The notes under the pieces are model-generated. The model saw only the letters and a program-made list of their open reading frames with translations, made no database searches and had not been told where the DNA came from. Shown one piece after another: positions 8,842-63,135 of a stretch of 64,000 nucleotides of DNA. The position numbers were made by a program, and so were the translations under genes. Where the stretch lies: contig CAVSBL010000002.1 of assembly GCA_963726255.1 (NCBI GenBank), forward strand, positions 1,440,001 through 1,504,000, read 5' to 3'. Numbering within the stretch: the stretch's first letter is position 1; every line of letters starts with the position of its first letter. This DNA comes from Candidatus Bathyarchaeota archaeon. GTDB lineage: Archaea > Thermoproteota > Bathyarchaeia > 40CM-2-53-6.

Positions 8842-9276
8842 CTGACGATCTTATCTGGCGAAGAGATTGAGAGGCGCGTTCGATGCGGATCGCTTGGCCT
8901 CACGCCTTTCGACCGTGGATGCTTGAATGGGGGCGGTTACGATCTGCGCTTGGCTATGGATGTAGTCATTCCAGCGGGCGAACATCGCTTGGTCGCAACT
9001 CTTGAAAGAGTTGAACTCGGAGATGATATAGTAGGAACAATGCACATTCGCTCCTCCCTTGCGCGCAGTGGAATCATGGCTAGCTTAGCGCTGGTGGACC
9101 CAGGCTTTCGCGGGCAGCTGACGATCTCACTCTTCAACGCGGGTGCCGATTCGTTCAAAATGAGTCGGAATAGCAGGTTCGTGCAGTTGACGTTGCATGA
9201 GCTTAGCAGTAAGACGAGACTCGTGTACACCGGGAAGTATCAAGATAGCCAAGGAATTGTAGATAGCCGACCCTAG
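8842..9276 (+). CDS. dcd: dCTP deaminase / trimeric dUTPase family
   Basis: RSSLAR, VDPGFRG and YTGKYQ motifs. The frame extends upstream to CTG at 8842 (TILSGEEI), behind a GGTGA Shine-Dalgarno. Confidence 0.85.
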   Translation: MTILSGEEIERRVRCGSLGLTPFDRGCLNGGGYDLRLAMDVVIPAGEHRLVATLERVELGDDIVGTMHIRSSLARSGIMASLALVDPGFRGQLTISLFNAGADSFKMSRNSRFVQLTLHELSSKTRLVYTGKYQDSQGIVDSRP

Positions 9277-14424: not shown

Positions 14425-15593
14425 TTACTGATCCTCCGCCCTGCCAAGTCTAGAATCTATCGGGATATATGGCAGCGCCGTTTTTCCCACGTATAGAGCC
14501 TTAGGTCGAATCAGCCTGTTTGCTTCTAGATATTCAATCGCGTGCGCGGTCCATCCGGCAATTCTACTCATGGCGAAGATGGCGGTGAACAAATCTGTGC
14601 TGATTCCAAGCACGTGAAAGACGATGCCTGAGTACGAGTCCACGTTCGGGAAAATCGGAAGCCCCTCGAGGTGTTTTCGCCGCTCGTCTCAATCGCTTCC
14701 GCTGTGTCGAATAACTTCGTTTGGCCCCTCTTTGCCGCTAGTTCTCCGCCAAGTTTCTTTAGAATCACATATCTTGGATCCCAAGTCTTGTAAACGCGAT
14801 GGCCGAATCCCATGATCTTCTTTTTCTGAGCGAGGCATTCGGTGACGTAACTCTCCGCTCTAGATGGCTCGCCCACCTCCATGACCGTCCGCAATGCAGC
14901 TTCGTTAGCGCCCCCGTGGAGTGGCCCTCTCAACGTCCCGATCCCTGAAGTTATTATGGAGTACATATCCGCTAGCGTTGAAGCAGTCACCGTGCACGAG
15001 AAGGTTGACGCGTTCATCTCGTGCTCCGCGTGAAGAATCAGGGCGACATCCATGACCTGGGCGTCGTACGGCTCAGGCTCCTTTCCCGTTAACATATACA
15101 GAAAATCTGCTGCGTGACTTAGTCCAAGTTTTGGTAAAATGGGCTCTCTTTGGTTTCTTATTCTGTCAAATGCGGTAATTATCGTGGGTGTTTTAGCTAA
15201 GATTCTAAGCGCCTTATCGATTCGTTCCTCGATGCTGTCCGTCATCGGGTGAGGGTCGTACACGCCGAGGGCCGAGACTGCTGTCCTTAAGACGTCCATT
15301 GGATCGCTGCTGGCGGGACATGAGCGAATTAGTTGCAGCACGCCTGGCTCAAGCGTGCGGTAGGACTCAATTCGACCCTTGAATTCGTCCAATTGGGATT
15401 TTGTTGGGAGCCAACCGTAGATGAGCAGGTAGGTAGTTTCTTCGAAGGTGGAGTGTTCGGATAGGTCATCGATGCTGTAGCCGCGGTAGAAGAGTTTGCT
15501 CGCTTCTCCGTCTATAAAACAGATCTTACTCTCTTTCACGTATACATTGTCAAGCCCTTTGTGAATGACAACGGGCTCTTTTACAGCAGTCAA
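14425..15593 (-). CDS. gltA: Citrate synthase / 2-methylcitrate synthase, apparent -1 frameshift near 14680
   Basis: HAEHEMNAST, LHGGAN and MGFGHRVY motifs. FPNVDSYSG...SRIAGW continues in the next frame (ORF 14425-14643). Confidence 0.9.
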
Positions 15594-17781: not shown

Positions 17782-19068
17782 TTACGCGGTTCTTATCGTT
17801 GCTGCCCCTTGCAGGCCAAGCTCCTTAATTGAAATCTCCCGCATCTTGAACTTCTGGATTTTCCCCGTAACCGTCATAGGAAACGAGTCTGTGAACTTGA
17901 AGTAGGCTGGAACCTTGAAGTACGCTATTCTCGCTTTGCAGTATTCCTGAAGTTCCAGGGCTGTTGCAGTCTGCCCAGGTTTCAGTTTGACCCACGCCAT
18001 GACTTCTTCTCCGTACTTTCGGCTTGGAACTCCGATTACTTGAACATCCGAAACCTTGGGATGCGTGTAGAGGAAATCTTCCACTTCTCTCGGGAAAATC
18101 TTCTCGCCGCCACGGCTAATCATATCCTTAGTTCGCCCGACGATGTTCACGTAGCCATTCTGTTGCATAACTGCAAGGTCTCCAGTGTGCATCCAACCCT
18201 CGGAGTCAATGGCTTCCCGAGTGGCTTCTGGATTGTTCCAATACTTCAGCATCACGAGGTAACCGCGAACGCACAACTCTCCCGCAGATCCGCATGGTAG
18301 AGTTCGGCGATGAACATTGTTGGTACGCCGTGAAGCGCTGTGCACTTTTCCTCCTCCACAGTCCTGAGGACGGTTTCCGCGCTGAAAGCATCCGAGGGAA
18401 GAACCATGGTTGCACCATGGGTAACGCACGCAAGGTTCCCTAGCACCATTCCGAAACAATGGTAGAAGGGTACTGGGATGCACAATCTGTCGTGGTGAGT
18501 GAAATTCATTCCCTCGCCAACGAAGAAACCATTATTCAAGATGCCATAATGGGTTAGGGTGGCGCCTTTCGGAAAACCAGTGGTTCCCGACGTATATTGA
18601 ATGTTGATGGCGTCATAACATTCGAGCGCCCTTTCTCTTTCTCTAAGCTCGGCTGGGGAGGAGTTCATTGTTCCGATGTCTATGAAACGTTCCCAGGGAA
18701 GCATTGAGGATGGGGAGGGCTCACCGCAATTGCTGAGTGTTATGACTCGTCGTAGGGCGGGGACACGGGTTGCTTTGATTTCCTGGTCAGGCGAATTGAG
18801 TCATGACCCATTCCGCGTTGTTCGGGGACCATATGCCGACGCAATCTCCCTTCTGCACGCCGAACCCGAGAAGCGCTGCGGCAAATTCATCCACCCGTTC
18901 CTTGAGCTGTGCGTAAGTGAACCTGAGGCCCTGATGCCTTGAAACGAGCGCCTCTCCATCCTCATACCTAGAGACTACCTCGTCGAAGAAACTCCCAACC
19001 GTCTTTTCGATGAGAAGCCTATCTGCCGGGCCTTGTTGGTAGCTTGGGCCCGGCCTGTTTTCCTTCAT
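17782..19068 (-). pseudogene. Long-chain acyl-CoA synthetase (ACSF2-like) with two internal deletions and frameshifts
   Basis: Three fragments in different frames (…WVMTQFA | …[12 protein letters not shown]…IAELYHAD | GELCVRGY…TGKIQK). Conserved segments are missing at about 18789 and 18284. Confidence 0.8.
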
Positions 19069-19144
19069 TTGCGCTCGCACGCCGTTTGGGGTTTGGGGGT
19101 GGAAGAATAGTTCTTGGTACCTTTACTAAATACGGTAAAATGCT

Positions 19145-19546: not shown

Positions 19547-19831
19547 TTTTGAGCATCTTCTGTTATAACTGCGAAGATTGCTGAACATGCGTAGTGGATG
19601 AAAACGTGAAGGTTATTGAGAATCAACGATAAGCGCTTCGGTGAAAGCGCTGGTGCAAACTCTGCGCAGCTAGCACCGATCAAGACATAGTGTCTAATCG
19701 CATGCTTGGAACTCCTCCGCCTACTGTGCCCTTAACCTACCTGCACGAGAAAAGAAACCAAACACAGCATTATTTACGCGTATGTACGAAGATGACTAGC
19801 CATTATTATTCTGGTAAGAGGAGATGCAATT

Positions 19832-21036
19832 ATGGCTCGTTATACCGTTGTGACGATGCCAGGAGACGGGATCGGCAATCAGGTTATGCCGGAGGCACTA
19901 CGTGTCCTAAGGGCAGTTGGTTTCGATGCAGATTATATCCATGCCGACATAGGCTGGGAGTTTTGGCGGAGCGAGGGAAACGCGCTGCCCAGTCGCACGA
20001 TTGACCTGCTGGCTAAGCACAAGCTGGGACTGTTTGGCGCCATCACATCCAAACCAAAGAAAGAGGCTGAAGCCGAGCTGGACCCTAAGCTACGCGATAA
20101 AGGACATGTCTACTACAGCCCCATCGTGACTATGCGTCAACGCTTCAACCTGGATATCTGCGTGCGGCCCTGCGTAGGCTTTCCCGGCAATCCGCTGAAC
20201 TATATCCGCAAAAGACCTGATGGTGGCTTCGAAGAGCCGCAGATCAACGCTACCGTCTTCCGCCAGAACACAGAGGGCCTGTATTGTGGCATCGAGTGGA
20301 CGAACCCGCCGGATATTGTCCGTGCTGCGCTGGACTCGCATCCCAAATTCAAGGCCTTCGCCGACGTTCCCGGGCAGGACCTCGCCGTAAGCGTGCGGAT
20401 CGTTACTCGGCCGGCGGCGCAGCGGATCATCACCGCAGCGTTTGAGTTCGCCAAAAAGAAGGGTTTCAAGGGAGTGACCATTTGCGAGAAGCCAAACGTG
20501 GTGCGCGAAACCTCTGGCATGATGGAGGAAGTTGCGAAGGAAATTCAAAAGACAAAGTTCCCTGACATCCAACTCTGGCGCAACAACATCGATGCGCAGT
20601 TAATGTGGTTGAACAAGAACCCGGAAAGCTTCAACGTAATCGTCGCTTCAAATCTCTTTGGCGACATCCTCTCCGATGCCATAGCCGGGTTGGTTGGTGG
20701 GCTGGGCTTCGCCGCTTCCGGGAATATTGGGAAGGAAGTTGCGGTCTTTGAACCGACACACGGGTCTGCCCCTAAGTACCGGAATTGAATCCGCCAATCG
20801 TGAATCCGATCGCCACCATCCTGGCGGGAGCGATGCTACTGGAACACGTCGGCGAAACTGCCAAAGCGAAAAAGATCTGGGATGCAGTTGGCGCCGTCGT
20901 GAGGGAGGGAAAGGTTCGCACTTACGACATGATGCGCCTCACCGGCGGGCCGAAAGTACTCCAACAAGGGGCAGCCTCAACACCTCAAATGACGGATGCA
21001 ATACTAGCCAAACTGGATAGGGAGAAGGAGGCTTAG
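19832..21036 (+). CDS. Isocitrate/isopropylmalate dehydrogenase family protein, apparent -1 frameshift near 20780
   Basis: PGDGIG, RQNTEGLY, NLFGDILSD and FEPTHGSAPKY motifs, then NPIATILAGAMLL in the next frame. Confidence 0.9.
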
Positions 21037-21041
21037 GCGAA

Positions 21042-22304
21042 ATGACAGGAAAAACATTAGCGGAGAAGTTGATTGGATCACACACCGCTAAGGGATCTGT
21101 TTCGGTTGGAGAGATCGTAATAGTCAAAGTGGATTACACCTTTAGTCACGACGCAGCCGGACCACTTCTAATTCAGCAACTAAGCAAATTGAAAAACGAC
21201 CTCTCTAGCTCCGACAAGAATCGGACGATCTTCTTCATCGATCATGCAGTTCCAAGCCCCACAAAAGAACTATCAAACGATCAGGCAACCGTCAGGAATT
21301 ACGCCTCAATCAACGGACTGATCTTATCTGATGCAGGTAACGGCATTTGTCACCAAATAATCGCGGAAGACTACGCGGCTCCGGGAGACCTACTTGTTGG
21401 AACAGACTCACACAGCTGCACGGCTGGTGGTCTGTGTGCATTCGGAACTGGCATGGGCGCGACAGATGTTGCAATCGCGATGAAACTAAGGAAAACATGG
21501 CTGCGTGTCCCAGAATCAATACGGATGAATATTGAGGGTCGCCTTCCGAGAGGCGTATTCGCCAAGGACTTGATTCTGAAGACCCTATCCATACTCGGAA
21601 CAGACGGAGCAACCTACAAGTCACTAGAATTCGATGGACCAGCAATCGATGAACTAGAAGTTTACGGCAGATTGACCTTGACTAACATGACTGTTGAAGC
21701 TGGCGCCAAGACAGGCCTCGTCAAGTCGGACGCACGCACAAAACAGTATCTCACGGAGTTTGGTCGGGAGCACCAATGGAAGGAAATCCATGCGGATGAT
21801 AATGCTTCCTACGAATCGGAAATCACAATCAACGCTTCGGAACTGCAACCTCAAATTGCTTTCCCCGGTTCGCCCTCCAACGTCAAACCGGTCTCCGAAG
21901 CTAAAGATGTGAAGGTTAACGAGGTCTTCATCGGAAGTTGCACAAACACCCGAATCGAAGATATGCGGATCGTGGCACAAATCTTCAGGAAGAAACAAAA
22001 AGCGAAGAATCTCAAGTTGATAGTAACCCCCTCATCTAGGAACCTGTACCTGAAATTGATGGAAGAAGGAATTCTGGAAACCTTACTACAAGCAGGAGCA
22101 GTAATCACCCCCCCTGGATGTGGAGTATGCTACGGAGCAGTTGGCGGAATCCCCGCCGACAACGAAGTGATCTTCTCCACTTCGAACAGAAACTTTCCAG
22201 GCCGAACAGGAAACCCGAAAGCCCAGACATACCTGGGATCACCAGCAACAGCAGCGGCAACCGCAATCACTGGTATCATTACGGATCCAAGAGAGTTTGT
22301 CTGA
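21042..22304 (+). CDS. leuC: 3-isopropylmalate dehydratase/homoaconitase-type large subunit
   Basis: DSHSCT, GSCTN, CGVC and STSNRNFPGR motifs. Substrate not established. Confidence 0.88.
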   Translation: MTGKTLAEKLIGSHTAKGSVSVGEIVIVKVDYTFSHDAAGPLLIQQLSKLKNDLSSSDKNRTIFFIDHAVPSPTKELSNDQATVRNYASINGLILSDAGNGICHQIIAEDYAAPGDLLVGTDSHSCTAGGLCAFGTGMGATDVAIAMKLRKTWLRVPESIRMNIEGRLPRGVFAKDLILKTLSILGTDGATYKSLEFDGPAIDELEVYGRLTLTNMTVEAGAKTGLVKSDARTKQYLTEFGREHQWKEIHADDNASYESEITINASELQPQIAFPGSPSNVKPVSEAKDVKVNEVFIGSCTNTRIEDMRIVAQIFRKKQKAKNLKLIVTPSSRNLYLKLMEEGILETLLQAGAVITPPGCGVCYGAVGGIPADNEVIFSTSNRNFPGRTGNPKAQTYLGSPATAAATAITGIITDPREFV

Positions 22305-22320
22305 GGAGAAGGTGTAAAGA

Positions 22321-22815
22321 ATGGCTGGACGAGCGTGGAAATTTGGGGACAACATCAGCACGGACGAAATAACTCCGGGACGGTACATGGGTCTTCGGTC
22401 GAACCTGCCCGAACTGGCGAAACACACCCTCGAGGATGCTAGAAAGGAGTTCCCCGGTAGCGTAAAGCCAGGAGACTTCGTTGTGGCTGGAAAGAATTTT
22501 GGGATGGGTTCAAGTCGAGAGCATGCGCCAATTGTCATTAAGACGTGCGGTGTCGCCGCAGTCCTTGCTCAGTCGTTTGCAAGAATATTCTATCGCAACG
22601 CAATCAACATAGGATTGCCAGCGATTGTTTGTGACACAACAATAATCGATGAAAGCGACCAACTCGAATTGCATCTCACGGACGGTGTCGTAGAGAACCT
22701 GACAAGAAAAACCAAGATCCAGTTCCCAGCAATGTCAAAGACCATGGAGACAATCCTTAGCGAAGGCGGACTTATCGCATACGTGGAAAAACATGGAGAT
22801 CTGGTTTTCTCGTGA
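22321..22815 (+). CDS. leuD: 3-isopropylmalate dehydratase/homoaconitase-type small subunit
   Basis: DNISTDEI, NFGMGSSREHA and SFARIFYRNAINIG motifs. Confidence 0.88.
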   Translation: MAGRAWKFGDNISTDEITPGRYMGLRSNLPELAKHTLEDARKEFPGSVKPGDFVVAGKNFGMGSSREHAPIVIKTCGVAAVLAQSFARIFYRNAINIGLPAIVCDTTIIDESDQLELHLTDGVVENLTRKTKIQFPAMSKTMETILSEGGLIAYVEKHGDLVFS

Positions 22816-23338
22816 GAAGAAAACATGACCAATTCAAGAGAATCTTTCCAGAAGTAAGTCAAATCCATAATCCAAAGCTGATCGAGGCCGTCCTGAGGAC
22901 TTGGCAGCTCGCTCAAGAGCGCGGTTGCTGGAAAGTGGACGATTTAGAACATATTCCATTCACCCTACTTGTTCAGACAAAAACGTCCTTGCTTGAACAC
23001 ACGAGACGTGTAACAAGGATGGCGATGGCTGTGGCTCGAGAGAGGGGTGACCTGAATATGGACTATGTTATTGCAGGCGGGCTTCTTCATGATGTGGGTA
23101 AGCTTCTAGAGTACGAAAGTGCGGGCGGCACGTTGTAAAATCGAGACCGGGCGAACTTGTTAGACATCCCGTCTCCGGATATGGCCTCACGCGTGAAACT
23201 GACTTACCCCTAGAGGTAAGTCACATAGTCATGTCTCATTCAGAGGAAGGAGAGAAAGTCAAGAGGACACCTGAAGCGATTCTAATTCACCATTGCGACT
23301 TTATCGACTTTGAGATAGCCAAGAGAAAGGCAAAATGA
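22812..23338 (+). CDS. HD-domain phosphohydrolase, apparent -1 frameshift near 23131
   Basis: EHT...LLHDVGK, then VRHPVSG...SHS...HHCDFID in the shifted frame. ATGA overlap with the next gene. Confidence 0.85.
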
Positions 23339-24624
23339 GACTATACGAAAACGAAGCAAAACAACTCTTCCGGGACAAGGGCATTCCTGTACCTGGGCAA
23401 TATGGAATAATCCACTCGCCCTTGGAACTGGAAGGACTCAACGCACATTACCCATTGATCCTGAAGGCACTCGTTCTGGTCGGAGGACGAGGAAAAGCGG
23501 GAGGAATCAAGAAAGCCAAGAATCAGAATGAAGCCAAGGCCAAGGCTGAGGAGATCTTCAAGCAGGGAGTAAAAGACTACCCTGTCAAGTCCTTACTAGT
23601 CGAGGAAGCTGTAGACGAACTCGCGGCCTGCTACATAGGGACGACGATGGATCCCGCAACCTTCAACAACGTTGTCATAGCAAGCGCCACCGGCGGTGTA
23701 GATGTGGAGACGGTGGCTAGAGACACTCCAGAAGCAATCCACAGAATCGAGGTCTCAGGAAACGAGAGCAAGCTTGCCCCGAGTCTAGCAAACGAGTTAG
23801 CCAGGCAACTTATCGACGAGCTGCCTGCAAGTGCACGCGCCATCGCCAGCACAGAAAACCTAGCAGAGATTACTTCCAAGGTCTACAGCCTCTATCAAGA
23901 AGCTGACACCAAGATCTGTGAGATCAACCCACTGATAATCACGACTAAAGGACTTGTGGCCGCTGATGCTAAGATCGTGCTCGACGATAACGCGTTGTAT
24001 CGTCAGAAAAAGCTACTTGATTCCCTTGGAATCACTGACAAGCGGCATGATGCAGCCGAGACGACCGCGAACGAACGAAAGGCTCAGGCAAACGGTTTCA
24101 AATATGTAGATCTTCTTCCCGAAGACGCCTCAAAGGATCTGAAGAAAATCTACGTAGGGCTTGTCCCTGGTGGGGCTGGCTATGGAATTTTCTCAATTGA
24201 CGAGGTCGCGAATATTGGGAATCGATTCTTTCAAGGTAGAGTCATACCCGTCGATTTCATGGACTCAGGAGGGGGGCCTTCCCAGCGTCAGGTAGCCCAA
24301 ATGTTTCATTTGCTGATGGACTATGACAAAGTCGACCTAATCATAACCTCACGATTCGGGGGCATCTCAAGTTGCGACGTCTTCATCCGTGGACTCGTTG
24401 AAGCCCTCAGGGAAAGACATGCCCAGGGCAAGAAAATCATTCCTGTCTACGGTCGGATGGTCGGAACAGATCTTCCTAGTGCCCGAGAATACTTGGAGAA
24501 GGCCAAGGCCGAGACACCGGAAGCGCTCAAAGAGATGACAATCATCGTGGGAAACCAGCGTATCATGGCTGATGTGATCAAAGACGCCATCAACTGGCTC
24601 TTCACCGCCAAGAGGGAGAAATAA
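23335..24624 (+). CDS. ATP-grasp subunit, succinyl-CoA synthetase beta / ATP-citrate lyase beta-like
   Basis: LYENEAK, GGRGKAGG, GGVDVE, EINPL and ADAKIVLDDNA motifs. Also GGAG and DSGGGP, which are ACL-like. Confidence 0.85.
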   Translation: MRLYENEAKQLFRDKGIPVPGQYGIIHSPLELEGLNAHYPLILKALVLVGGRGKAGGIKKAKNQNEAKAKAEEIFKQGVKDYPVKSLLVEEAVDELAACYIGTTMDPATFNNVVIASATGGVDVETVARDTPEAIHRIEVSGNESKLAPSLANELARQLIDELPASARAIASTENLAEITSKVYSLYQEADTKICEINPLIITTKGLVAADAKIVLDDNALYRQKKLLDSLGITDKRHDAAETTANERKAQANGFKYVDLLPEDASKDLKKIYVGLVPGGAGYGIFSIDEVANIGNRFFQGRVIPVDFMDSGGGPSQRQVAQMFHLLMDYDKVDLIITSRFGGISSCDVFIRGLVEALRERHAQGKKIIPVYGRMVGTDLPSAREYLEKAKAETPEALKEMTIIVGNQRIMADVIKDAINWLFTAKREK

Positions 24625-26759
24625 TGGAGAAAATACGTGCCGACCAAGGATTGCTCTACCATCTCATCATGCAAGTCCGACCGGAACTCGCGAGGCACAT
24701 CAAAGAGACAGGAGAGATTGACACAATTGTTGTGGGCCTGGGAGGCGAGGGCACGCGTCACGCGGGACTAATGCGCGACTTCGGGACTAGAATTGTTGCT
24801 GGAATTGCGCCGGGCCGTGGGGGCACTCGTATCCACGAGACAATTCCAGTATATGACACGGTTGCAGAGTGTCTCAAGGATCACCCATATGTCGCTGCGG
24901 CGAGCATTTGGCGGCAATTTTCCACGGCGAAGGAGGCGGTAATCGAGGTCATTGAAGCAGGTATTCCGCTTGTTGTCGTAATCACTGAAGGAATCCCTCT
25001 GCGCGATGTCCGCGAGATGCTCGTAGCTGCGAGAAGGAACAGAACAGTCCTGATTGGGGGAAACTCGCCTGGCATCATCTTTCCCCCTGAGCAGGTAAAG
25101 ATAGGGATGCTTCCCGACGTCTTCTACCCTGAAGAGATTGCCCCTGGGAAGGTCGGACCAAATGGGGTTACGATAATCTCTCGTAGTGGTGCAATTCTGT
25201 ACCATATGTCCGATGCTCTAGCAAGTGCAGGTATCGCTCAGAACGCGGTCATCGGTATCGGCGGCGATGCAGCGATTGGTTCCACTTTTGTGGATCTGAT
25301 CCCTCTTGTGATGAAGTATCCACACACCGAACTCGTGGTGATTGCAGGAGAGATAGGCGGTATCCAAGAAGAGCGACTGGCCGAGGATATTCTTGCCCAT
25401 CCCGGACGATACTCAAAACCCTTGGTAGCCCTCGTCTCAGGAGCACACGCCCCGGAAGGGAAGACAATGGGACACGCCGGAGCAATCGTCGCTCCAGGAC
25501 AAGCCTACGGCACCTTCAAGTCAAAAAAGGAAGCACTGGAGCGTGCAGGAGTAACCGTTGTCAACTCCCAGTACGACCTCATCGAGGCTGCAAAGACAAA
25601 ACTGAAGAAAACCTACTTCGACCCAGAACGATACTATCAGAAAATGCGACACACCTGGGACGCGAAAGCCACAACCCCGGGGTGGGGGACTGTAATTACC
25701 GAAGTAAAACCGAACAACATCATCATCTCGGGCTACTCACTGCAACAAATCGTTGGCCACAAAGGGCTCTTGGACGTGGTCAATCTCTTATTCGAAGGAG
25801 AGTTCGCCGCTCCAGAATTGATGAAAGAGTTGCGAACCACCGCCATGAAAGGAGCTCTCAAGCCAGGGCCCCCGATCGTAAGGTATGGAGATGAAGATAT
25901 CTCTCAGACCCTTGCTAGGGCTCTCATCTATGACGAAATTCTAGCGACGTTTCCGCAGAAGGGAAGATCAGCACCTAGACTCAAGACTGCCTTCGCTATG
26001 GGAAGAGTCGGAAGGTATCTTGCAGCAATCTTGCGAACTACATCCGCGCTCGACGACCTCTCGGAAGAATCGAGCTTCACTGAACTAATCTACCGAGCTA
26101 TAACTGGCAACACGGCCTTTGATCGTGAAAAAGGAAACCTCCTTGAAGCGATGGCTGTAGCATGTGTGGACCACGGTGTTACTCCTCCCTCAGCTCAGGT
26201 CGCTATCATCTCGGCAACAACAAGACCCGACTACTCGGTGTCGGTTGCAAGCGGAATTGGTGCGATAACGGACATCCACGGAGGAGCAGGAGCGAAGGCT
26301 GCGCATTTCTTCTCCGAATGTGTTTCTCGTTCCAAGAAAAATAAAGTCGATTTGGAGGAAGCCACTAGAATAGTAGTTACTGAGTATGTCAGAGCCGGGC
26401 GGAGGATTGAAGGTCTCGGCCATAGAATCCACACCCAGGACCCTAGGCGAGATGTTCTCTGGAAACTAAGTGAGGTTGCAGGGATAGCCGCAGAGAATGT
26501 AGCCGTTTCCAAGATCGTTTCTAAAGTGTTCAAGCAAGTGCGAGGGATGGACCTCCCAATCAACGTGGATGGAGTCATCGGGGCTATAGTCGCCGACATG
26601 GGACTGAATCCCATAGTCGCAAAAGTCCTCTTCATTTGGGGGCGCGTTGCGGGCCTCTCGGCACATTATTTCGAAGAGATTCTTTCTCAACCCGAGATGC
26701 GATCCATCAACTTCGCCCAAGCCGTCTACAAGGGAAAACTTCACCGGGAGCTACTATAG
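24624..26759 (+). CDS. SucD-like CoA-binding/phospho-His domain fused to citrate synthase/citryl-CoA lyase domain (ATP-citrate lyase alpha-like)
   Basis: ITEGIP, SRSG, GEIGG and MGHAGA motifs, followed by DHG, HGGA, GLGHR and NVDG. Confidence 0.88.
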   Translation: MEKIRADQGLLYHLIMQVRPELARHIKETGEIDTIVVGLGGEGTRHAGLMRDFGTRIVAGIAPGRGGTRIHETIPVYDTVAECLKDHPYVAAASIWRQFSTAKEAVIEVIEAGIPLVVVITEGIPLRDVREMLVAARRNRTVLIGGNSPGIIFPPEQVKIGMLPDVFYPEEIAPGKVGPNGVTIISRSGAILYHMSDALASAGIAQNAVIGIGGDAAIGSTFVDLIPLVMKYPHTELVVIAGEIGGIQEERLAEDILAHPGRYSKPLVALVSGAHAPEGKTMGHAGAIVAPGQAYGTFKSKKEALERAGVTVVNSQYDLIEAAKTKLKKTYFDPERYYQKMRHTWDAKATTPGWGTVITEVKPNNIIISGYSLQQIVGHKGLLDVVNLLFEGEFAAPELMKELRTTAMKGALKPGPPIVRYGDEDISQTLARALIYDEILATFPQKGRSAPRLKTAFAMGRVGRYLAAILRTTSALDDLSEESSFTELIYRAITGNTAFDREKGNLLEAMAVACVDHGVTPPSAQVAIISATTRPDYSVSVASGIGAITDIHGGAGAKAAHFFSECVSRSKKNKVDLEEATRIVVTEYVRAGRRIEGLGHRIHTQDPRRDVLWKLSEVAGIAAENVAVSKIVSKVFKQVRGMDLPINVDGVIGAIVADMGLNPIVAKVLFIWGRVAGLSAHYFEEILSQPEMRSINFAQAVYKGKLHRELL

Positions 26760-28169
26760 GTGGATTCGATCAGTCGCAGAATGGCACAATTTGCTCTGTC
26801 TTTGCGTTATGAGGCGATCCCTGAACCTGTTTTGCGAATGGCGAAGCGGTTGCTTCTGGACAGCATAGGCTGCGCTCTTGCCGCCGTTAAACTGAAGGAC
26901 ATTCAGGCAGCGTACAACTATGTTCAGCAGCTTGGAGGGAAGAAACAGGCAAGCATCATCTGGTACGGCGATAAAACAAACATGCCCAACGCAGCACTTA
27001 TGAACTCCCTTCTAATCCGTGCCATGGATTACAACGATATCTACTGGAAACAGGATCCCTGTCATCCGTCAGACATAATCCCTGCGGCACTAGCCCCAGG
27101 GGAGTATCGTGGCGTAAGTGGAAAGGAGTTAGTTACAGCGATCGTGATCGCCTATGAGCTTGAGATGAGACTGTGCCTTGCCGCTGATCCCGGGATTCGT
27201 GAAGTGGGTTGGCATCACGCAAGCCTTACGCAATTTGTAAGTCCTTTGGTCGCTGGACGAATGCTCGGCTTAAGCGAAGATCAAATGGTGTCAGCCGTCG
27301 GAATCGCCGGCTCAAGTCACTTCACTTTCGGCGGGGTGGTTGCAGGCCATCTGACGAACATGAAGAATGCAGCCGACCCCATGGCAACTGAAGCTGGAGT
27401 TCGCGGAGCGATGCTAGCAGCAACAGGCTATTCCGGTCCGGTGGAGATTTTTGAGGGGAAAGAGAGCCTATTTGAAGTACTATCGAAAGTGAGATGGAAT
27501 AGAAATGCGTTGATCGATCATCTAGGTGAAGGGTTCCTCATCACACAGTGTAGCTTCAAGGCGTTTCCAACGGAAGCACTGACGCATCAGCCGATCACGG
27601 CGACTTTGGAAATAATGCGAGAGAACAAAATCGATTCCCGTGAAGTCAGAGAAGTTCTTGTCGAGACAACGAATCGCGGAGCTGATATTCTATCTGACAA
27701 AAGCAAATACCATCCCACAACGAAGGAAACAGCTGATCATTCTCTTCCTTATTGCATAGCAGTGGCGATTGCCAAAGGAAATGTTCTACCATCTGACTTT
27801 GAAGAAAAAGCTCTCCAAGATCAATCTGTTCTGCAACTTCTTCCTAAGATCAAGGTTATTGCCAACCCTGAGATCGATGCCATTTTTCCAAATGTGAAAC
27901 GAACGATCGTCACCATCACGACAAGAGATGAGCGAACGTTCAAGAAGCAAGAGGACTTCGCTAGGGGAGAACCGGAACGGCCACTTTCCGAGCAAGAACT
28001 GATTGCCAAGTTCCATGCCAACGCGCAAGTCGCTTTGAGCAAGAGACAGCGGGAAGAACTGATTCAAGCTACTCTTGCCATTGACCAGTACAATGATGTC
28101 CGCAAATATGTGTCCCTTCTAGTTCGTGCTGCAACTCCTCGTTTCGACCGGATGCAAGTCCGGCGGTGA
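26760..28169 (+). CDS. prpD: MmgE/PrpD family protein (2-methylcitrate dehydratase-like)
   Basis: DYND...HPSD, GWHH and KETADHSLPY motifs. Confidence 0.88.
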   Translation: MDSISRRMAQFALSLRYEAIPEPVLRMAKRLLLDSIGCALAAVKLKDIQAAYNYVQQLGGKKQASIIWYGDKTNMPNAALMNSLLIRAMDYNDIYWKQDPCHPSDIIPAALAPGEYRGVSGKELVTAIVIAYELEMRLCLAADPGIREVGWHHASLTQFVSPLVAGRMLGLSEDQMVSAVGIAGSSHFTFGGVVAGHLTNMKNAADPMATEAGVRGAMLAATGYSGPVEIFEGKESLFEVLSKVRWNRNALIDHLGEGFLITQCSFKAFPTEALTHQPITATLEIMRENKIDSREVREVLVETTNRGADILSDKSKYHPTTKETADHSLPYCIAVAIAKGNVLPSDFEEKALQDQSVLQLLPKIKVIANPEIDAIFPNVKRTIVTITTRDERTFKKQEDFARGEPERPLSEQELIAKFHANAQVALSKRQREELIQATLAIDQYNDVRKYVSLLVRAATPRFDRMQVRR

Positions 28170-28213
28170 GAGTCGCCCTCCAAATCGAAATGGTATATGT
28201 TTTTTTGTGCGTG

Positions 28214-29272
28214 CTATCCCATCGTCAGCGCCATTACTGCTTTCTGGGCATGAAGGCGGTTTTCGGCTTCGTCGAATATGACGGAGTTCGGTCCATCCAT
28301 GACCTCATCGGTTACCTCGAAGCCGCGGTCTGCAGGTAAGCAGTGCATGTAGAGAGCTTTCTTCTTGCAGAGGTCCATCATCTTCTGGTCGCAGATCCAA
28401 TCTTTGTGCTTGTCTATGAGTTGCCTTACACCGTCTAGGTCAGGGCTAGACCTCTTGGGCGGCAAGTACTCCGTGCTCGTCCATGACTTCGGATAAACCA
28501 CGTCGGCACCTTGAAATGCTTCCTTCATGTCGTAGGACACTTCGAAGGAGCCGCCGTTTTCATCCGCTAGGCGTTTGCAGTTCTGTATCACTTTGGGATC
28601 CAGCTCGAAGCCCTTCGGATGGGCTAGTACGACATCCATTCCGAAGTTTGTCCCAACCAGTGCCACGCTGTGCGGCACGCTGAGCGGTTTCCACGGGCTT
28701 GGGGCGTATGCCCAGCTCATCACTAGCTTCTTTCCTTCAGGTTTCGGTAATTTCTCTTTGATGGTTAGTATATCAGCCATTGCTTGGCATGGGTGGAACA
28801 TGTCGTCTTCCATGTTGATGATCGGGATCTTGGACCATTTCGCGAAGTCGCGCACAATTTGGTTGCCTCTGCCATAGGTCCAGTCTGCGGGTTTTCCGAA
28901 GATCCGGATAGCAATCCCATGCCCATATCGCTCAAGCACTCTGGCGGTGTCTGAGACTCGTTCCTTGGTCTCAGCTGCCACCTTTGTCTCCCCAACATCG
29001 CCCAACTTGATTGTTGGGCTGTAGACCGTTTCGGGCTGCAAGTAGTGCGCATGCCCTCCAAGTTGCGTCATCCCCGCCTCGAAGCTGTTCCTGGTGCGGA
29101 GCGAGGGATTGTAGAATAGCATGAAGAGCGTCTTGTCGGCAAGGATCTTGTGCGGTTCGCCAACTGCGAACTTCCTCTTGAGGTCCTTCGCCAACTCCAG
29201 TACGGCGTCCAGCTCTTCACGAGTCCATTCGGCAGTGTCGATGAAGTCCATGCCCTTCAAATTTGTAAACAT
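28214..29272 (-). CDS. Ornithine-carbamoyltransferase-family enzyme, knotted YgeW/AOTCase type
   Basis: SLRT, HPCQ, SWAY...KPLSVP, MHCLPADRG and EAENRLH motifs. Confidence 0.88.
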   Translation of the reverse strand: MFTNLKGMDFIDTAEWTREELDAVLELAKDLKRKFAVGEPHKILADKTLFMLFYNPSLRTRNSFEAGMTQLGGHAHYLQPETVYSPTIKLGDVGETKVAAETKERVSDTARVLERYGHGIAIRIFGKPADWTYGRGNQIVRDFAKWSKIPIINMEDDMFHPCQAMADILTIKEKLPKPEGKKLVMSWAYAPSPWKPLSVPHSVALVGTNFGMDVVLAHPKGFELDPKVIQNCKRLADENGGSFEVSYDMKEAFQGADVVYPKSWTSTEYLPPKRSSPDLDGVRQLIDKHKDWICDQKMMDLCKKKALYMHCLPADRGFEVTDEVMDGPNSVIFDEAENRLHAQKAVMALTMG

Positions 29273-31300: not shown

Positions 31301-32908
31301 TTGGAAACTCCGTCGAAAGTCTTCCTAAGAAAGGCATCTGGCCTTGTACGAGAAATATCGTTTACGGACGTTCTGTTGTACAATATCGCACAGATAAGCA
31401 TCGGTATCGGCATCGCGTACATTGTGCTCTTTGTTCCGTCCTTCTACCCTGGCAGCAGCATGGAACTATCAATAATCATAACCACAATTGGATGCATGTT
31501 TTTCGCGCTGGTCTATTCCCTGTTCTCGGTGACAATGCCGCGTTCTGGTGGGGACTATGTGTTCGTCACTAGAACACTGCATCCGGCAATCGGTTTCGCA
31601 ATGAACTGGAACTTCGCCTTATGGGAAATATTCTACGTCGGATGGTCCGCGGGTCTCTTCGGCTTCTTGGGACTATCTACCTTCTTCGCCATACTCGGAT
31701 CGATCACAGGGAACCCACAGATGGCGACCTATGCCCAGGCGGTCAGTACTCCGAATGGGTATGTCCTCCTAGGAACTGTGGTCCTTATCTTGTTCACATT
31801 GCTCCTGATCTTCGGAGTCAGATCGTACTTCAAGTTCCAGACGGCGAGTTTCATAATCGCTTTTGTTGGCAGTCTGCTTACAATAGTTGTCCTTGCAGCT
31901 ACAAACCCTGCTTCGTTCATAACTGCGTTCAACCACTACGCTTCTGCGCTGGGCGTGGCATCACCCGACGCATATCACGACATTATCAACGAAGCGGTCA
32001 AGGCAGGCTACACGACTGGTGCTGCCTTCAGCTGGGATGCAACATTGAAGAGCACTCTCTGGCCTTTCCTTGCTTTAGCAATCTCAATGCTCTCAACCGT
32101 TTTTGCTGGTGAGATCAAAAGCGTCAAGAAGAACCAGATGGTCGGCATACCAGCCAGTCTGGTATTATGTGGCGGTCTCTTCGTTGTAATGGCATACCTC
32201 ATCGTCAGAACCGTTGGGTACGATTTTCTGGGTGCGGCAGGATACCTCTATTATGTTAACCCATCCGCGTACCCACTTCCAACAGCGCCTTGGTACAGCC
32301 TTTTCGCAGCGTTAGTGAGCTCCAACATCGTTGTCACTTTTCTGATTTTGGTGAGTTTCGCAATTTGGTCGATTTACTGGGTTGCTGTATGTGCGATCTA
32401 TTCGTCCCGAAGTATGCTCGCATGGTCCATTGACAGGCTAACTCCAAAATGGGTTGGAAACGTCAGCGAGAAATATAGGACACCCGTCAGTGCAATACTC
32501 ATTTCAATGTTTGGCGGATGGATTTTTCTCCTAATCTATGCATACACGCCTTACCTGGTTACTCTAGTAGGAATGCTTGGACTGGCGATCACAATTCTGT
32601 TTGTCTGCATCGCTGGACTGGTACTACCATACCGTAGGCGAGAAATTTTCGAAAAGTCGCCTGCTAACTACAGAATCGCCGGCATTCCCGCCATAAGTAT
32701 CTTCAGCCTTGGAGGAATTATCTATCTACTCTATACAATCTATCTCTTCTTGATTGACAGCGTAGTCGCCGCAAACACGCCGAGCAACGAAATCGCAATT
32801 GTAGGCTTCATCGTGAGCGGATTCATCTACTTCTACGCTGCACGCGCATACCAGAAGAGCAAGGGCATTGACGTAGACCTTGCATACAAAGAAGTCCCAG
32901 TGGAGTAA
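31301..32908 (+). CDS. APC-family amino acid/amine permease
   Basis: FLRKASGLVRE and PRSGGDY motifs, about 12 TM helices. Confidence 0.9.
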   Translation: METPSKVFLRKASGLVREISFTDVLLYNIAQISIGIGIAYIVLFVPSFYPGSSMELSIIITTIGCMFFALVYSLFSVTMPRSGGDYVFVTRTLHPAIGFAMNWNFALWEIFYVGWSAGLFGFLGLSTFFAILGSITGNPQMATYAQAVSTPNGYVLLGTVVLILFTLLLIFGVRSYFKFQTASFIIAFVGSLLTIVVLAATNPASFITAFNHYASALGVASPDAYHDIINEAVKAGYTTGAAFSWDATLKSTLWPFLALAISMLSTVFAGEIKSVKKNQMVGIPASLVLCGGLFVVMAYLIVRTVGYDFLGAAGYLYYVNPSAYPLPTAPWYSLFAALVSSNIVVTFLILVSFAIWSIYWVAVCAIYSSRSMLAWSIDRLTPKWVGNVSEKYRTPVSAILISMFGGWIFLLIYAYTPYLVTLVGMLGLAITILFVCIAGLVLPYRRREIFEKSPANYRIAGIPAISIFSLGGIIYLLYTIYLFLIDSVVAANTPSNEIAIVGFIVSGFIYFYAARAYQKSKGIDVDLAYKEVPVE

Positions 32909-33036
32909 ACCCTCACCCCTCTGGTTTTTTCCCGTTTGGTAGACATGAGCCATAAGACCGCATCCACGACACATGTCGTGAGCTGGGCAATTATGAAGTC
33001 CCGGCGAAGCCAAAGAACACGAAAGCGGCCATAGCA

Positions 33037-33639
33037 TTGCCGCCCGCAGCTCTGATCGCAATCCCTGCTCGGCGCGGCAAGGCTGCTCGGGCTAAGAAGG
33101 GGCAGCTTGTCAAAGTGATTAACACACATGGCACGCAAGTCGTCGACACATGGGCGTTCAACGCAGACGATTTGCCTGAGTTTATGTCAATGGAGCACAC
33201 GCGGCCCCACACAGGGCACATAATTCCGAAGGTTGGCGACATCATGTGTACGAACAAGCGTCGCCCGATTCTCACATTCATGGAGGATACGTCGCCTGGA
33301 ATCCACGACACTATCATCGCCGCATGTGACCGATACCGTTACAGGTTCCTAAACTTCGAGGGCTATCACGACAACTGCACAGACAACCTCCACGCCGCTA
33401 TGAGCGAACTCGGTCTCACCCCGCCTGAAACTCCGAGCCCCTTGAATCTGTGGATGAACATCCCGGTGGGCCAGGACGGCAATATTCAGTTTCTGCCGAC
33501 TGTGGCGAAGCCAGGGGACTACGTGGTTCTCCGGGCCGAGATGGATGTTGTGATGGCCTTCTCGGCTTGTCCCCAAGACATACTGCCGATAAATGGCCCC
33601 TCATGCAAACCGGTCGAGTGCCATTTTCAAGTGATATAG
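33037..33639 (+). CDS. Urea-carboxylase-associated family protein (DUF1989)
   Basis: GTQVVD, HDT...AC, NCTDNL, LNLWMN and SACPQD motifs. Confidence 0.88.
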   Translation: MPPAALIAIPARRGKAARAKKGQLVKVINTHGTQVVDTWAFNADDLPEFMSMEHTRPHTGHIIPKVGDIMCTNKRRPILTFMEDTSPGIHDTIIAACDRYRYRFLNFEGYHDNCTDNLHAAMSELGLTPPETPSPLNLWMNIPVGQDGNIQFLPTVAKPGDYVVLRAEMDVVMAFSACPQDILPINGPSCKPVECHFQVI

Positions 33640-33737
33640 CGAATGGATGGATCTAACCACCAAGAACAGTATCGGATTCTCTACGTGTCGGAAGTGACCT
33701 ACGTGCTACGCTGAACCGTGTTCTGAACGCTTAACTT

Positions 33738-35342
33738 CTATTCGACTGGGATTTCCCGGAACGTTAAGCTTACGTCGACTCCCTGTTTCTTCCTGTAAGC
33801 TTTCATCACGTAGAAGAGGATGAAGCCAACGACTATGAATCCCGCGACCATTGCGAGGGAAGTGGTGCTGTTCGCTCCAGCTCGTGGGTCTGTGATCATG
33901 ATGTAAATTGCCACAATGTTCGTTATGGCGTTGATCGCACCGAAGATCGAAATCACTGGGATACCAGCAACTTTCCAGTCCACTCCTGAGCGGTTAAAGA
34001 ACTCCTTCTGTCTGAACGGGAAGATCATGGCTGCAATAGACGCGAGTAAGAAGACGAAACCGATTCCAAGCGAACCTGAAAGTACCCCTAGCCAAGTGGT
34101 GAAGGCGATTCCTGCAAGAAAAAGCGCGCCGCCGATCCCTGAGAGAACTATCGTGTTGATTGGGGTGCGGTATCGCTCACTGACATGTGCGAAGACATCT
34201 GGAAGCATTCCGTCCATAGCCCATGCAAAGGAAGTTCTAGAGGTGAAGACGTAGACAGTTGCTGTAAGGACGAGGAACCAGCTGAACCAACCGAACAGTA
34301 TGAACGAGCTGAGAATCGCGTTGTCAGTGAGCAGAGCCGTGAAGAGGTTGTACCATGGAGACACTGGAATTGGCAGTGCGGATGGGTTATTGAACATCAG
34401 GTACGTCGCCGCCCCAAGGAAGTCGTAACCAAACACCCTCCCGCCCAAGAAGAGTAATAGAAAGAACAACACACCAGTCACGAGAACAGACCCAACCATT
34501 CCGAACAGTTGACTCTTCTTGACGCTCTTCACCTCCCCCGAGTAAGATGCGGAGGTCATGCAGAAACCGATCGCAAGCCAAGGCCAGACAAAGAAGAACA
34601 CGGTTTCCAACAATGAAAAGGGCGTTCCTGAACCGAATCCGTTTTGGACCGCTGTTTGAATAATCGCATGGTATGTGTCGTCCAAGTTTGAGTATGGCTT
34701 CGAAAAGGCGTTGAAGCGGGAAATGAAAGTTTCCTGGCTAGTTGTAGCGAGAAGCGCTATGACCACAATTGTGCTTGCCACAGCAATTATGAAAACGACC
34801 TTCTGGAAGTTGAAATAGTTTTTCATCCCAGAAGCCAACAGGATGCCGTAGAAAACAATGCTGATAAGTCCAATCATGAAGAATGCGTTCGGAGTTCCAG
34901 CCCACTGACTCATCGAGATTAGGCCTGGGCTGTTGGTCACGAAGCCGATGCCGGCTAGCATCGGCGCCACGCCTTGGAACCCAAGCATAGCCGCGTTCAG
35001 GCCGAGATAGAATAGCATCCAGACAAAGAAGTTCCAACTCATAACAAAACCTAGTGTCGGATGAATTATGCGCGTAATGTAGACGTAGTCTCCCCCTGAA
35101 CGTGGATATACTGAAGCCAACAATGCGTATGTGAGACCTTGAAAGAGAGCCACAATCGTCGTGATGACGATCGACAGCTCAAGGCTAGCGCCGGGGTAGG
35201 AGATCCAGTAGAGCACGATGAAGAGTGTGTACCCGATGCTGATCATGAACATGTTATAGGCGAGAACATCAAACCCCGAGACCTCTCGGACAAGGCCTGA
35301 GGCTTTCCTGACAAACGTTCTGGGTTCAGTCATATCTAACAT
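33738..35342 (-). CDS. APC-family permease (tandem paralog 1)
   Basis: FVRKASGLVRE and PRSGGDY motifs, multi-TM. Confidence 0.9.
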   Translation of the reverse strand: MLDMTEPRTFVRKASGLVREVSGFDVLAYNMFMISIGYTLFIVLYWISYPGASLELSIVITTIVALFQGLTYALLASVYPRSGGDYVYITRIIHPTLGFVMSWNFFVWMLFYLGLNAAMLGFQGVAPMLAGIGFVTNSPGLISMSQWAGTPNAFFMIGLISIVFYGILLASGMKNYFNFQKVVFIIAVASTIVVIALLATTSQETFISRFNAFSKPYSNLDDTYHAIIQTAVQNGFGSGTPFSLLETVFFFVWPWLAIGFCMTSASYSGEVKSVKKSQLFGMVGSVLVTGVLFFLLLFLGGRVFGYDFLGAATYLMFNNPSALPIPVSPWYNLFTALLTDNAILSSFILFGWFSWFLVLTATVYVFTSRTSFAWAMDGMLPDVFAHVSERYRTPINTIVLSGIGGALFLAGIAFTTWLGVLSGSLGIGFVFLLASIAAMIFPFRQKEFFNRSGVDWKVAGIPVISIFGAINAITNIVAIYIMITDPRAGANSTTSLAMVAGFIVVGFILFYVMKAYRKKQGVDVSLTFREIPVE

Positions 35343-35421
35343 CTGCTCCGATCGCTCATGATTGAAAGTTCAATCGTATATAACATCGAGGGTGCACCTT
35401 CAGTTAGCGCTTCATTCCCAA

Positions 35422-60229: not shown

Positions 60230-60232
60230 TTT

Positions 60233-60997: not shown

Positions 60998-60998
60998 C

Positions 60999-62934: not shown

Positions 62935-63135
62935 TAACCTCAGCCACCCATTCTCGAGCTTCGAGCCTCTTTCAGAGGCACCCTCTTAGGAGTCACGTAT
63001 CAACATCCTACTTACAATTAAGATGACCCACACCGTATATGGTAGTGTCTCTCGGGAATTCGTGCCGTCAGAACTCATGTTTCTCCCGATTGGAGTCACA
63101 CCCTGAAAAAAAGAAAAGAGGGGGTTTTTGTGAGG

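Follow-up and report, generated by a model that had tools for sequence, protein, structure and literature searches.

A 64,000-nucleotide stretch of the genome of an uncultured Candidatus Bathyarchaeota archaeon from sediment (assembly GCA_963726255.1, contig CAVSBL010000002.1, positions 1,440,001 to 1,504,000; hereafter the window) carries, at positions 19832-28169 of its + strand, a compact operon built around an unusual ligase-lyase. The operon is real and intact, and it is conserved, with the putative function of a variant of the citrate-cleaving arm in the tricarboxylic acid (TCA) cycle. Its central enzyme, made of a SucC-like subunit and a SucD::citrate-synthase fusion, is on its sequence an enzyme of ATP-citrate lyase (ACL) architecture and not a canonical ACL. 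We give about an even chance to the reading in which the operon encodes a non-canonical, probably reversible citrate/isocitrate/2-oxoglutarate segment of the cycle.

Seven co-directional, tightly packed genes were read from the open reading frames (ORFs) of the window. The first encodes a dehydrogenase of the Iso_dh family (Pfam; 19832-21036; 401 aa after restoring one base). A 5-nt gap separates it from the gene of a LeuC/HacA-type large subunit of the aconitase family (21042-22304; 420 aa; Pfam Aconitase, NCBIfam NF001614), which is followed after 16 nt by that of a LeuD/HacB-type small subunit (22321-22815; 164 aa; TIGR02087). Two successive 4-nt overlaps link this gene to one for an HD-domain (HDIG) protein resembling metal-dependent phosphohydrolases (22812-23338; Pfam HD; 175 aa after restoring one base) and the latter to the gene of the SucC-like ATP-grasp beta subunit of the ligase module (23335-24624; 429 aa; Pfam ATP-grasp_2 and Ligase_CoA). 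The SucD-like::citrate-synthase-like fusion (24624-26759; 711 aa; Pfam CoA_binding, Ligase_CoA and, at residues 356-687, Citrate_synt) overlaps its partner by 1 nt and directly abuts the last gene, which encodes a divergent MmgE/PrpD-family protein, a putative hydro-lyase (26760-28169; 469 aa; Pfam MmgE_PrpD_N and _C). A preliminary description of the window, made from the sequence alone, had proposed seven overlapping or abutting genes here, and Pfam assigns every domain that it named.

Two of the seven genes are frameshifted in the deposited assembly, where the dehydrogenase gene is split into 19832-20788 and 20785-21036, with the Iso_dh profile in two pieces (1-283 and 288-348), and the HD gene falls into one part at 22812-23138 and another frame that reaches 23338. 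Taken at face value these 1-nt deletions would make the operon a decaying remnant, a reading to which we attach a negligible chance. The locus of a close relative (L011; L numbers denote the loci compared), which is 97.3% identical to the window over 9 kb, holds intact orthologues of both genes (dehydrogenase of 401 aa, L011:3207-4412; HD protein of 175 aa), and against it the window is one base short at 20780 and one base short at 23116, within a run of A. Contigs of four public sequencing runs, the DNA runs X1, X2 and X5 and the RNA-library run X20, were aligned on 19700-28300. X1, almost the same as the window in sequence, is possibly the sample from which it came; X2 belongs to the study of X1, and X5 comes from another study. 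By depth, all covering contigs carry a G inserted behind 20779 (8.67 of 8.67 in X1, 20 of 20 in X2, 11.4 of 11.4 in X5 and 2.2 of 2.2 in X20), and all covering DNA contigs carry an A inserted behind 23115 (7.57 of 7.57, 16.9 of 16.9 and 9.24 of 9.24, respectively), where X20 has no coverage. Since every covering contig carries the missing base, both breaks are assembly errors and the organism itself has the two genes unbroken; for the population sampled in X1, X2 and X5 the contigs rule out the pseudogene reading, which we rejected. Genes elsewhere in the window (a citrate synthase, an AMP-binding protein, DCD and BPD_transp_2) are likewise broken, as indel errors of long reads would leave them. 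The contigs of X20, a wetland metatranscriptome, lie on 20098-22737 (dehydrogenase, LeuC and LeuD), at 92-99% likeness and in 9 of 30 bins, with none downstream; they are a weak hint of expression, DNA carry-over being possible.

The fusion joins a CoA-binding and phospho-His module resembling the alpha subunit of succinyl-CoA synthetase (SCS; residues 1 to about 330) to a full-size domain of citrate-synthase fold (about 356-711). His284 of its phospho-His loop, GKTMGHAGAIV, is invariant in all 16 aligned family members, as are H517, H552, H600, R608, D649, R674 and R693 of the lyase domain (16/16). The catalytic residues of the lyase align with those of the genome's own citrate synthase and of a stand-alone citryl-CoA lyase (CCL), and we take the roles of the His/His/His/Asp/Arg residues to be those of pig citrate synthase. 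The spacing of the GHR/P-x-H-T-x-DPR motifs equals that in the genome's stand-alone CCL; the genome's citrate synthase has one residue more there. The intact GHAGA phospho-His, the citrate-synthase-family domain and the ATP-grasp partner on which the preliminary description had built were all found again with Pfam and in the family alignment.

Sequence comparison with the PDB by phmmer placed the alpha part of the fusion closest to SCS alpha (2yv2, 213 bits), ahead of CcsB (128 bits) and AclA (6hxj_B, 117 bits; 6hxi_B, 73 bits), and the SucC-like subunit closest to SCS beta (3ufx_B, 160 bits), ahead of CcsA (61 bits) and AclB (38 bits). The C-terminal domain of the fusion scored 105 bits with Ccl of Hydrogenobacter thermophilus, 41 with citrate synthases and 28 with the lyase module of AclA. 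The NCBIfam cut-offs for SCS were reached neither by the SucC-like subunit (235.4 against 370 bits) nor by the alpha part of the fusion (234.9 against 353.2 and 232.7 against 336 bits); the fusion also stays below the CCL cut-offs (NF004866, 180.5 against 245 bits; NF004869, 170.4 against 212 bits), and the ACL-specific Pfam model PF24948 gives it 42 bits for a cut-off of 83. In a tree of 12 fusion alpha parts, 3 true AclA and 17 SucD sequences, built without CcsB and Ccl and without four SucD rows of L006-L010 (truncated ORFs), the fusion alpha parts form a clade with 100/100 support on a long stem, within an unresolved polytomy with SucD lineages and separate from AclA (100/100). The match to ACL that had been proposed from the sequence therefore holds for the two-subunit architecture and fails for membership in the AclA/AclB sequence clade: in the phylogeny that had been suggested as a check the fusions do not fall within AclA, and the ligase parts are closest to SCS.

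The last 372 residues of the fusion, modelled with AlphaFold (pLDDT 84), superpose on whole citrate and 2-methylcitrate synthases with TM-scores of 0.68-0.75 over 360-390 columns. The alignment of this model with Ccl (6hxp) spans 242 columns only, yet gives the highest identity, 32%. Relative to stand-alone CCL the lyase of the fusion carries an extra block of about 100 aa, and it does not correspond to a short CCL-type module of about 260 aa. From sequences and model the enzyme is an independently built, ACL-like ligase-lyase, its lyase part being CCL-like in sequence and citrate-synthase-sized in fold. Apart from the operon, a stand-alone 260-aa gene of the citryl-CoA-lyase family adjoins thyX in the same genome (G000:C2:1235017-1235799; L097:5017-5799; NCBIfam CCL subfamily, 282 against 245 bits); most genomes of the genus have similar ones, and no Ccs partner is evident.

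Canonical AclB/AclA (Chlorobium limicola 6hxj, Methanothrix 6hxi/6znw, human ACLY) resemble the operon pair in combining an ATP-grasp beta subunit with an alpha subunit whose CoA-binding/phospho-His module is fused to the lyase, with the same catalytic residues and probably the same ligase-then-lyase logic. Yet the fusion scores 73 bits with 6hxi_B, for which a sister species' true AclA reaches 845; the lyase of the fusion is about 105 residues longer and has a whole citrate-synthase fold, and the pair is accompanied by an HD protein and by hydro-lyases of non-canonical type. CcsAB and Ccl of H. thermophilus (6hxq, 6hxp) share the SCS-like ligase parts, and Ccl is the best sequence match of the C-terminal domain, at the score and identity given above. 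In the operon, however, the ligase alpha part and the lyase are one polypeptide, the ligase is nearer to true SCS (213 versus 128 bits for alpha, 160 versus 61 bits for beta), and the lyase retains a helical region of about 100 aa that Ccl does not have. Among solved structures SucCD comes closest to both ligase parts, and it has the phospho-His loop in common with them, whereas the genome's own SucCD is 31% (beta) and 43% (alpha) identical to the operon pair, which misses the SCS cut-offs, forms its own long-stemmed clade and bears a fused lyase.

The LeuCD-type hydratase of the preliminary description is confirmed by subfamily models for both subunits. The LeuC-like protein clears the cut-offs of NF001614 (507 against 385 bits) and TIGR01343 (495 against 386 bits), and the LeuD-like protein that of TIGR02087 (190 against 109 bits); no NCBIfam equivalog cut-off for LeuC, HacA or aconitase was reached by the pair. 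The operon LeuC is the only match to PF00330 above the cut-off in the window's genome (G000; other G numbers are related genomes) and also the sole tblastn match there. Aligned to 3vba, 1v7l and 2pkp, the substrate-recognition loop of LeuD reads RYMGLRSNL, is kept in the Bathyarchaeial copies and differs from YLRT of the methanogen homoaconitase and YLVYT of isopropylmalate isomerase. Its Arg would fit a carboxylated substrate of either length.

The last gene of the operon had been named PrpD, and the domains of the MmgE/PrpD fold are indeed present; the identity as PrpD was not upheld. The protein falls far under the PrpD equivalogs (102.6 against 575 and 77.1 against 458 bits), and in the PDB it scores 98 bits with IDS-epimerase, 95 with Bacillus subtilis IRG1, 87 with cis-aconitate decarboxylase (CAD) and 71 with PrpD. 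It is best classed as a divergent MmgE/PrpD member, roughly equidistant from IDS-epimerase, IRG1/CAD and PrpD. Five of the eight residues that we take to form the active site of human CAD are kept (D93, H103, H159, K207 and K272) and three are changed (T97 to Ile, H277 to Glu and Y318 to Asp). Because a fused LeuC::LeuD replaces it in six other loci, the protein may well be a hydro-lyase. E. coli PrpD interconverts citrate and cis-aconitate and is not known to make isocitrate; an enzyme that stops at cis-aconitate would explain a two-enzyme aconitase. In the methylcitrate cycle (PrpD and aconitase) and in the fungal aminoadipate pathway (aconitase and homoaconitase), as would hold for the operon, two hydro-lyases share one isomerisation, one acting on the tertiary and the other on the secondary alcohol; the operon differs in that its PrpD member is divergent and its partner is of the archaeal LeuCD/HacAB type. 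A second MmgE/PrpD-family gene of G000 (C2:1956066-1958335; L096:4066-6335), 27% identical to that of the operon, shares an overlap with a ComA-like (phosphosulfolactate-synthase-like) gene that scores well under the cut-off.

The HD protein scores 55 bits with the Pfam HD model (cut-off 22; intact ortholog), and in 13 homologues its H..HD..H..H..D motifs are conserved at H63, D94, H119, H143, H160 and D163, with H93 nearly invariant. Its model (pLDDT 93.8) is closest in fold to YhaM (E 2.7e-6, TM-score 0.67) and then to the HD domains of PgpH. No sequence match was found in the PDB, the fold search returned generic HD phosphohydrolases only, and the ESM Atlas only clusters named "HD domain-containing protein". 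The role of this protein had been called unexplained: it has now turned out to be a conserved core partner, and its fold yields no functional clue. As no other partner accompanies the ligase-lyase so regularly among the loci compared, we would guess that the role of the HD protein is tied to the phosphoryl chemistry of that enzyme.

The genome in which the operon lies is 98.5% complete and holds two citrate synthases, SucCD (C2:1179327-1181340), a class I fumarase, a malate dehydrogenase (MDH)-like gene, four FrdA-like genes and five 2-oxoacid:ferredoxin oxidoreductases (OFORs), including a KorAB-like pair. Searches of this genome found no canonical AclA/AclB, no AcnA and no type-II isocitrate dehydrogenase (IDH), and no CdhC, a marker of acetyl-CoA synthase and the Wood-Ljungdahl pathway. 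As far as gene content tells, the TCA gene set is complete but for the stretch from citrate to 2-oxoglutarate, and the operon alone is a candidate to link the two. In G008, a sister species within the genus, a canonical cluster (L099, G008:C10:111001-129000) contains a type-II NADP-IDH, AclB, AclA, KorBA, a 212-aa protein and AcnA; G003 and G005 (L100 and L101) have ORFs of matching sizes in the same order, annotation being confined to the cluster of G008. AclA-type matches (ORFs of 622-631 aa) occur in G002, G003, G005, G008, G009 and G032 and in none of the five operon-bearing genomes, which is a pattern among kin genomes that are not independent and not a statistic.

Other pathways that use such enzymes were sought in the same genome. 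No HMGL-like gene was found in G000 by a search whose control was positive in 14 of 14 genomes; of the five operon-bearing genomes four, G000 included, have none, and G015 has only one of 422 aa. No LysX over the cut-off was found in G000, which has two DHDPS genes, pointing to a diaminopimelate (DAP) route to lysine; a search for an AlaDh_PNT_N family gene was negative there as well, and its one Sacchrp_dh_NADP protein is encoded far from the operon. Leucine biosynthesis (LeuCD with LeuB) was rejected on the lack of an HMGL-like/LeuA gene in G000 and on the dicarboxylate-type Arg residues kept in the lyase, and lysine synthesis by the aminoadipate route on the LysX and DHDPS results. A saccharopine-type breakdown of lysine feeding the operon is unsupported by the AlaDh_PNT_N and Sacchrp_dh_NADP results.

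We favour citrate as the substrate because this lineage has no canonical ACL, aconitase or IDH and the operon offers one analogue of each. The ligase-lyase, having arisen separately from canonical ACL, would catalyse citrate + ATP + CoA <-> acetyl-CoA + oxaloacetate + ADP + Pi by way of a phospho-His enzyme and channelled citryl-CoA, as in ATP-citrate lyase. The MmgE/PrpD-family protein would interconvert citrate and cis-aconitate, the first half of a two-part "aconitase", and the LeuCD-type Fe-S enzyme would perform the second half, cis-aconitate <-> isocitrate. The Iso_dh-family dehydrogenase would then interconvert isocitrate with 2-oxoglutarate and CO2, and the HD protein would serve as an accessory metal-dependent phosphohydrolase whose target, for example an enzyme-bound or acyl phosphate, is a guess. 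The substrates, the way the flux runs and how the two hydro-lyases share the work are all inferred from sequence and gene context. The self-contained tricarboxylate module that had been proposed for these genes is thus upheld as a conserved set filling the TCA gap of the genome, and not as a member of the ACL family.

Several observations weigh against the citrate segment. The dehydrogenase reaches no NCBIfam equivalog cut-off, and its top matches there are homoisocitrate dehydrogenases (HICDH), all below the cut-off (AksF, 253 against 500 bits; AksF2, 249 against 540 bits); the best IDH model gives 226.5 against 510 bits. Its substrate pocket reads Ser-Pro-Ile-Val, compared with Ser-Val-Asn-Val in the NAD-IDH 6lky and Gly-Ala-Ile-Arg in the HICDH of Thermus (1x0l): the Ile aligns with Ile84 and the Val with Arg85 of the Thermus enzyme, and there is no equivalent of Asn115, which with Ser113 in E. 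coli IDH presumably forms the Ser-x-Asn pocket for the gamma-carboxylate. From work on an Arg85Val variant of the Thermus HICDH, such a pocket reportedly disfavours isocitrate. On these assumed roles the pocket does not look tuned to isocitrate. The segment would moreover be redundant in G016 and G019, which keep AcnA beside the operon, and in L016, where a type-II IDH adjoins it, and G000 already has citrate synthases. Four loci (L018, L021, L022 and L031) consist of HD protein, SucC-like subunit and fusion only, with no hydro-lyase or dehydrogenase gene within 9 kb. Finally, one aconitase normally performs both half-reactions on citrate. In fungi, homocitrate is handled by a constant pair of hydro-lyases (PMC3556520).

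Much of this would be accounted for by the same chemistry on substrates one carbon longer, that is, by an ATP-coupled reversal of the upper aminoadipate pathway. The dehydrogenase would interconvert 2-oxoadipate + CO2 + NAD(P)H with homoisocitrate, the LeuCD-type enzyme, as a homoaconitase, homoisocitrate with cis-homoaconitate, and the PrpD-type protein cis-homoaconitate with homocitrate, which the ligase-lyase would interconvert with acetyl-CoA and 2-oxoglutarate, ATP being used or yielded. The pocket of the dehydrogenase, its AksF-type matches and the fungal pair of hydro-lyases all point this way, the Arg in the RYMGLRSNL loop agrees with it, and the redundancy with AcnA and type-II IDH would disappear. 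We nevertheless hold a homocitrate pathway, the main rival of the citrate segment, to be possible but doubtful. All oxaloacetate-binding residues are invariant in the lyase domain, and to our knowledge every characterised enzyme of the citrate-synthase family uses oxaloacetate. The HMGL-like, LysX and AlaDh_PNT_N searches and the DAP route leave no evident source or sink of 2-oxoadipate in G000, which would be left with citrate synthases yet no aconitase, and the sister species hold the canonical citrate cluster where the operon lineage holds the operon. Were it true, the ligase-lyase would be the first citrate-synthase-family enzyme with 2-oxoglutarate as its keto acid, the PrpD-type protein would fill the place of a dedicated homocitrate dehydratase, which has long been sought, and the operon would represent an undescribed pathway.

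Alkylcitrate, itaconate and other readings are, even taken together, unlikely. A module acting on 2-methylcitrate or another alkylcitrate, with the ligase-lyase as an ATP-dependent methylcitrate lyase/synthase, is suggested by the PrpD-family protein standing beside an aconitase-family hydratase, which is the pattern of the methylcitrate cycle, by the C-terminal model, equally near to 2-methylcitrate synthases (TM-scores 0.72-0.74), and by the hydrophobic Ile and Val in the dehydrogenase pocket. But 2-methylisocitrate is a tertiary alcohol that an Iso_dh-type enzyme cannot oxidise, which leaves the dehydrogenase without a role; the neighbours scanned include no PrpB-type lyase, the PrpD-type protein is far below the PrpD equivalogs and at least as near to IDS-epimerase or CAD as to PrpD, and six loci have a fused LeuCD in place of its gene. 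We judge this variant, which the preliminary description had raised and which fits poorly, improbable. Still more improbable, in our estimate, is that the PrpD-family protein is a cis-aconitate decarboxylase and that itaconate is a product or a substrate of the operon, whose ligase-lyase would activate itaconate or cleave citramalyl-CoA. The scores with IRG1 and CAD do exceed that with PrpD (95 and 87 against 71 bits) and five of the eight CAD residues are kept. Against this, T97, H277 and Y318 are replaced, the neighbours scanned show no itaconyl-CoA hydratase, the lyase domain keeps its oxaloacetate-type Arg residues without variation, and the fused LeuCD found in its place elsewhere points to a hydro-lyase.

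The full-length fusion was found in 5 of 41 related genomes (G000, G021, G015, G019 and G016), all belonging to the genus of the window (5 of 23 there), and the operon-type LeuC, at 84-100% identity, in the same five only. The closest public records of the fusion are those of L011 (96% identity) and L012 (86%). Outside the genus, the best 120 database matches are 611-785 aa long and 61-96% identical to the fusion, with the labels archaeon, Thermoplasmatota, Euryarchaeota, Acetothermia/Bipolaricaulia and Eisenbacteria; family members are named "succinyl-CoA synthetase alpha subunit", "citrate/2-methylcitrate synthase" or hypothetical protein. An HD gene stands beside the pair in 15 of 22 fusion loci, five of the seven without one being cut by contig ends, and a PrpD-type or aconitase-family gene is kept in 15 of the 22 (PrpD-family in 7, aconitase-family in 11). 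A fused LeuC::LeuD of 586-665 aa lies before or after the pair in six loci, where no PrpD-family gene was found; fused and split LeuCD sets occur together in two loci, and the same type of dehydrogenase is kept in 5 of 22. Occasional neighbours are OFOR subunits (L016 and L030), the type-II IDH (L016), MDH (L023) and, in L014, a CitF that passes its equivalog cut-off (557 against 501 bits); the OFOR subunits, MDH and CitF speak for a citrate segment. The family is evidently widespread in uncultured archaea and bacteria, with the HD partner kept and the hydro-lyases usually so, and its PrpD-bearing Bathyarchaeial form is a new element. The gene set of the preliminary description, which had proposed a survey of neighbourhoods, does recur elsewhere. 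In an Acetothermia locus (L013) compared with window positions 22812-28169, the HD protein is 73%, the SucC-like subunit 69%, the fusion 72% and the PrpD-type protein 78% identical; since these identities are very high for an archaeon and a bacterium, they suggest that the module moved between the domains, fairly recently.

A second variant of the operon occurs within the genus (the type of G015 and G019; L012:10332-12385, L017 and L015). There the HD gene upstream of SucC is represented by a 75-aa ORF, a different HD protein of 183 aa, 43-46% identical to bacterial ones, follows the fusion, and the PrpD-type gene is only about 50% identical to that of the window. Among metagenomic loci, a B12-binding radical-SAM gene lies directly after the fusion in L018 (4261-5580), L021 (11206-12525), L022 and L031; L019 and L021 have AcnX (aconitase X) genes some kb upstream.

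In the literature we found no description of a SucD::citrate-synthase fusion or of this operon. ACL homologues in Bathyarchaeota are mentioned in a preprint (10.1101/2022.10.25.513756), and PMC8407382 reports that neither ACL nor citrate synthase was found in 35 metagenome-assembled genomes of hot-spring Bathyarchaeia. If the enzyme cleaves citrate, SCS-like and citrate-synthase-like parts have been put together into an ATP-citrate-lyase function on at least two occasions, and a whole citrate-synthase fold within a ligase-lyase makes the proposed relationship between CCL and citrate synthase testable at the bench. In this Bathyarchaeon, in which no CdhC was found, the operon would close the otherwise complete TCA gene set. 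Because the records are named SCS alpha, citrate/2-methylcitrate synthase or hypothetical, marker-gene surveys of the reductive TCA cycle that are based on aclAB or ccsAB/ccl would probably miss the family. The conserved HD partner and the exchange of PrpD for LeuCD can be tested under either reading of the substrate, citrate or homocitrate.

The remaining observations concern the surroundings of the operon. A GGAGA motif resembling a Shine-Dalgarno sequence was read 5' of the ATG at 19832, and the upstream intergenic region (19684..19831, +) has AT-rich, TATA-like stretches at about 19769-19777 and 19803-19812 and is a putative promoter region. An oligo-T run (T7; 28200..28207, +) begins 31 nt past the last stop codon and is a possible archaeal terminator. 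The separate, ordinary citrate synthase at 14425-15593 (-) that had been pointed out earlier does exist and is frame-broken in the assembly near 14690: one frame covers profile positions 1-297 and the second (14425-14688) bears the C-terminal NVD...RxxGW motifs, probably through another assembly indel. The gene of an AMP-binding acyl-CoA synthetase (17782-19080, -) is fragmented: compared with L011 it lacks about 250 bp, and at 19095 a run of G differs in length (G6/G5). A dCTP-deaminase-like (DCD) gene (8923-9276, +) and a branched-chain permease gene (BPD_transp_2; 62290-62934, -) are truncated or split. About one-tenth of the genes in the window appear broken, which fits uncorrected indels in an assembly of 5 contigs made from long reads. 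At 31301-37065 and 59516-63909 are three genes for paralogous amino-acid permeases and a branched-chain amino-acid ABC transporter; together with the five OFORs they fit a consumer of peptides and amino acids. The window also holds a tRNA-intron endonuclease gene and an A-type ATPase operon.

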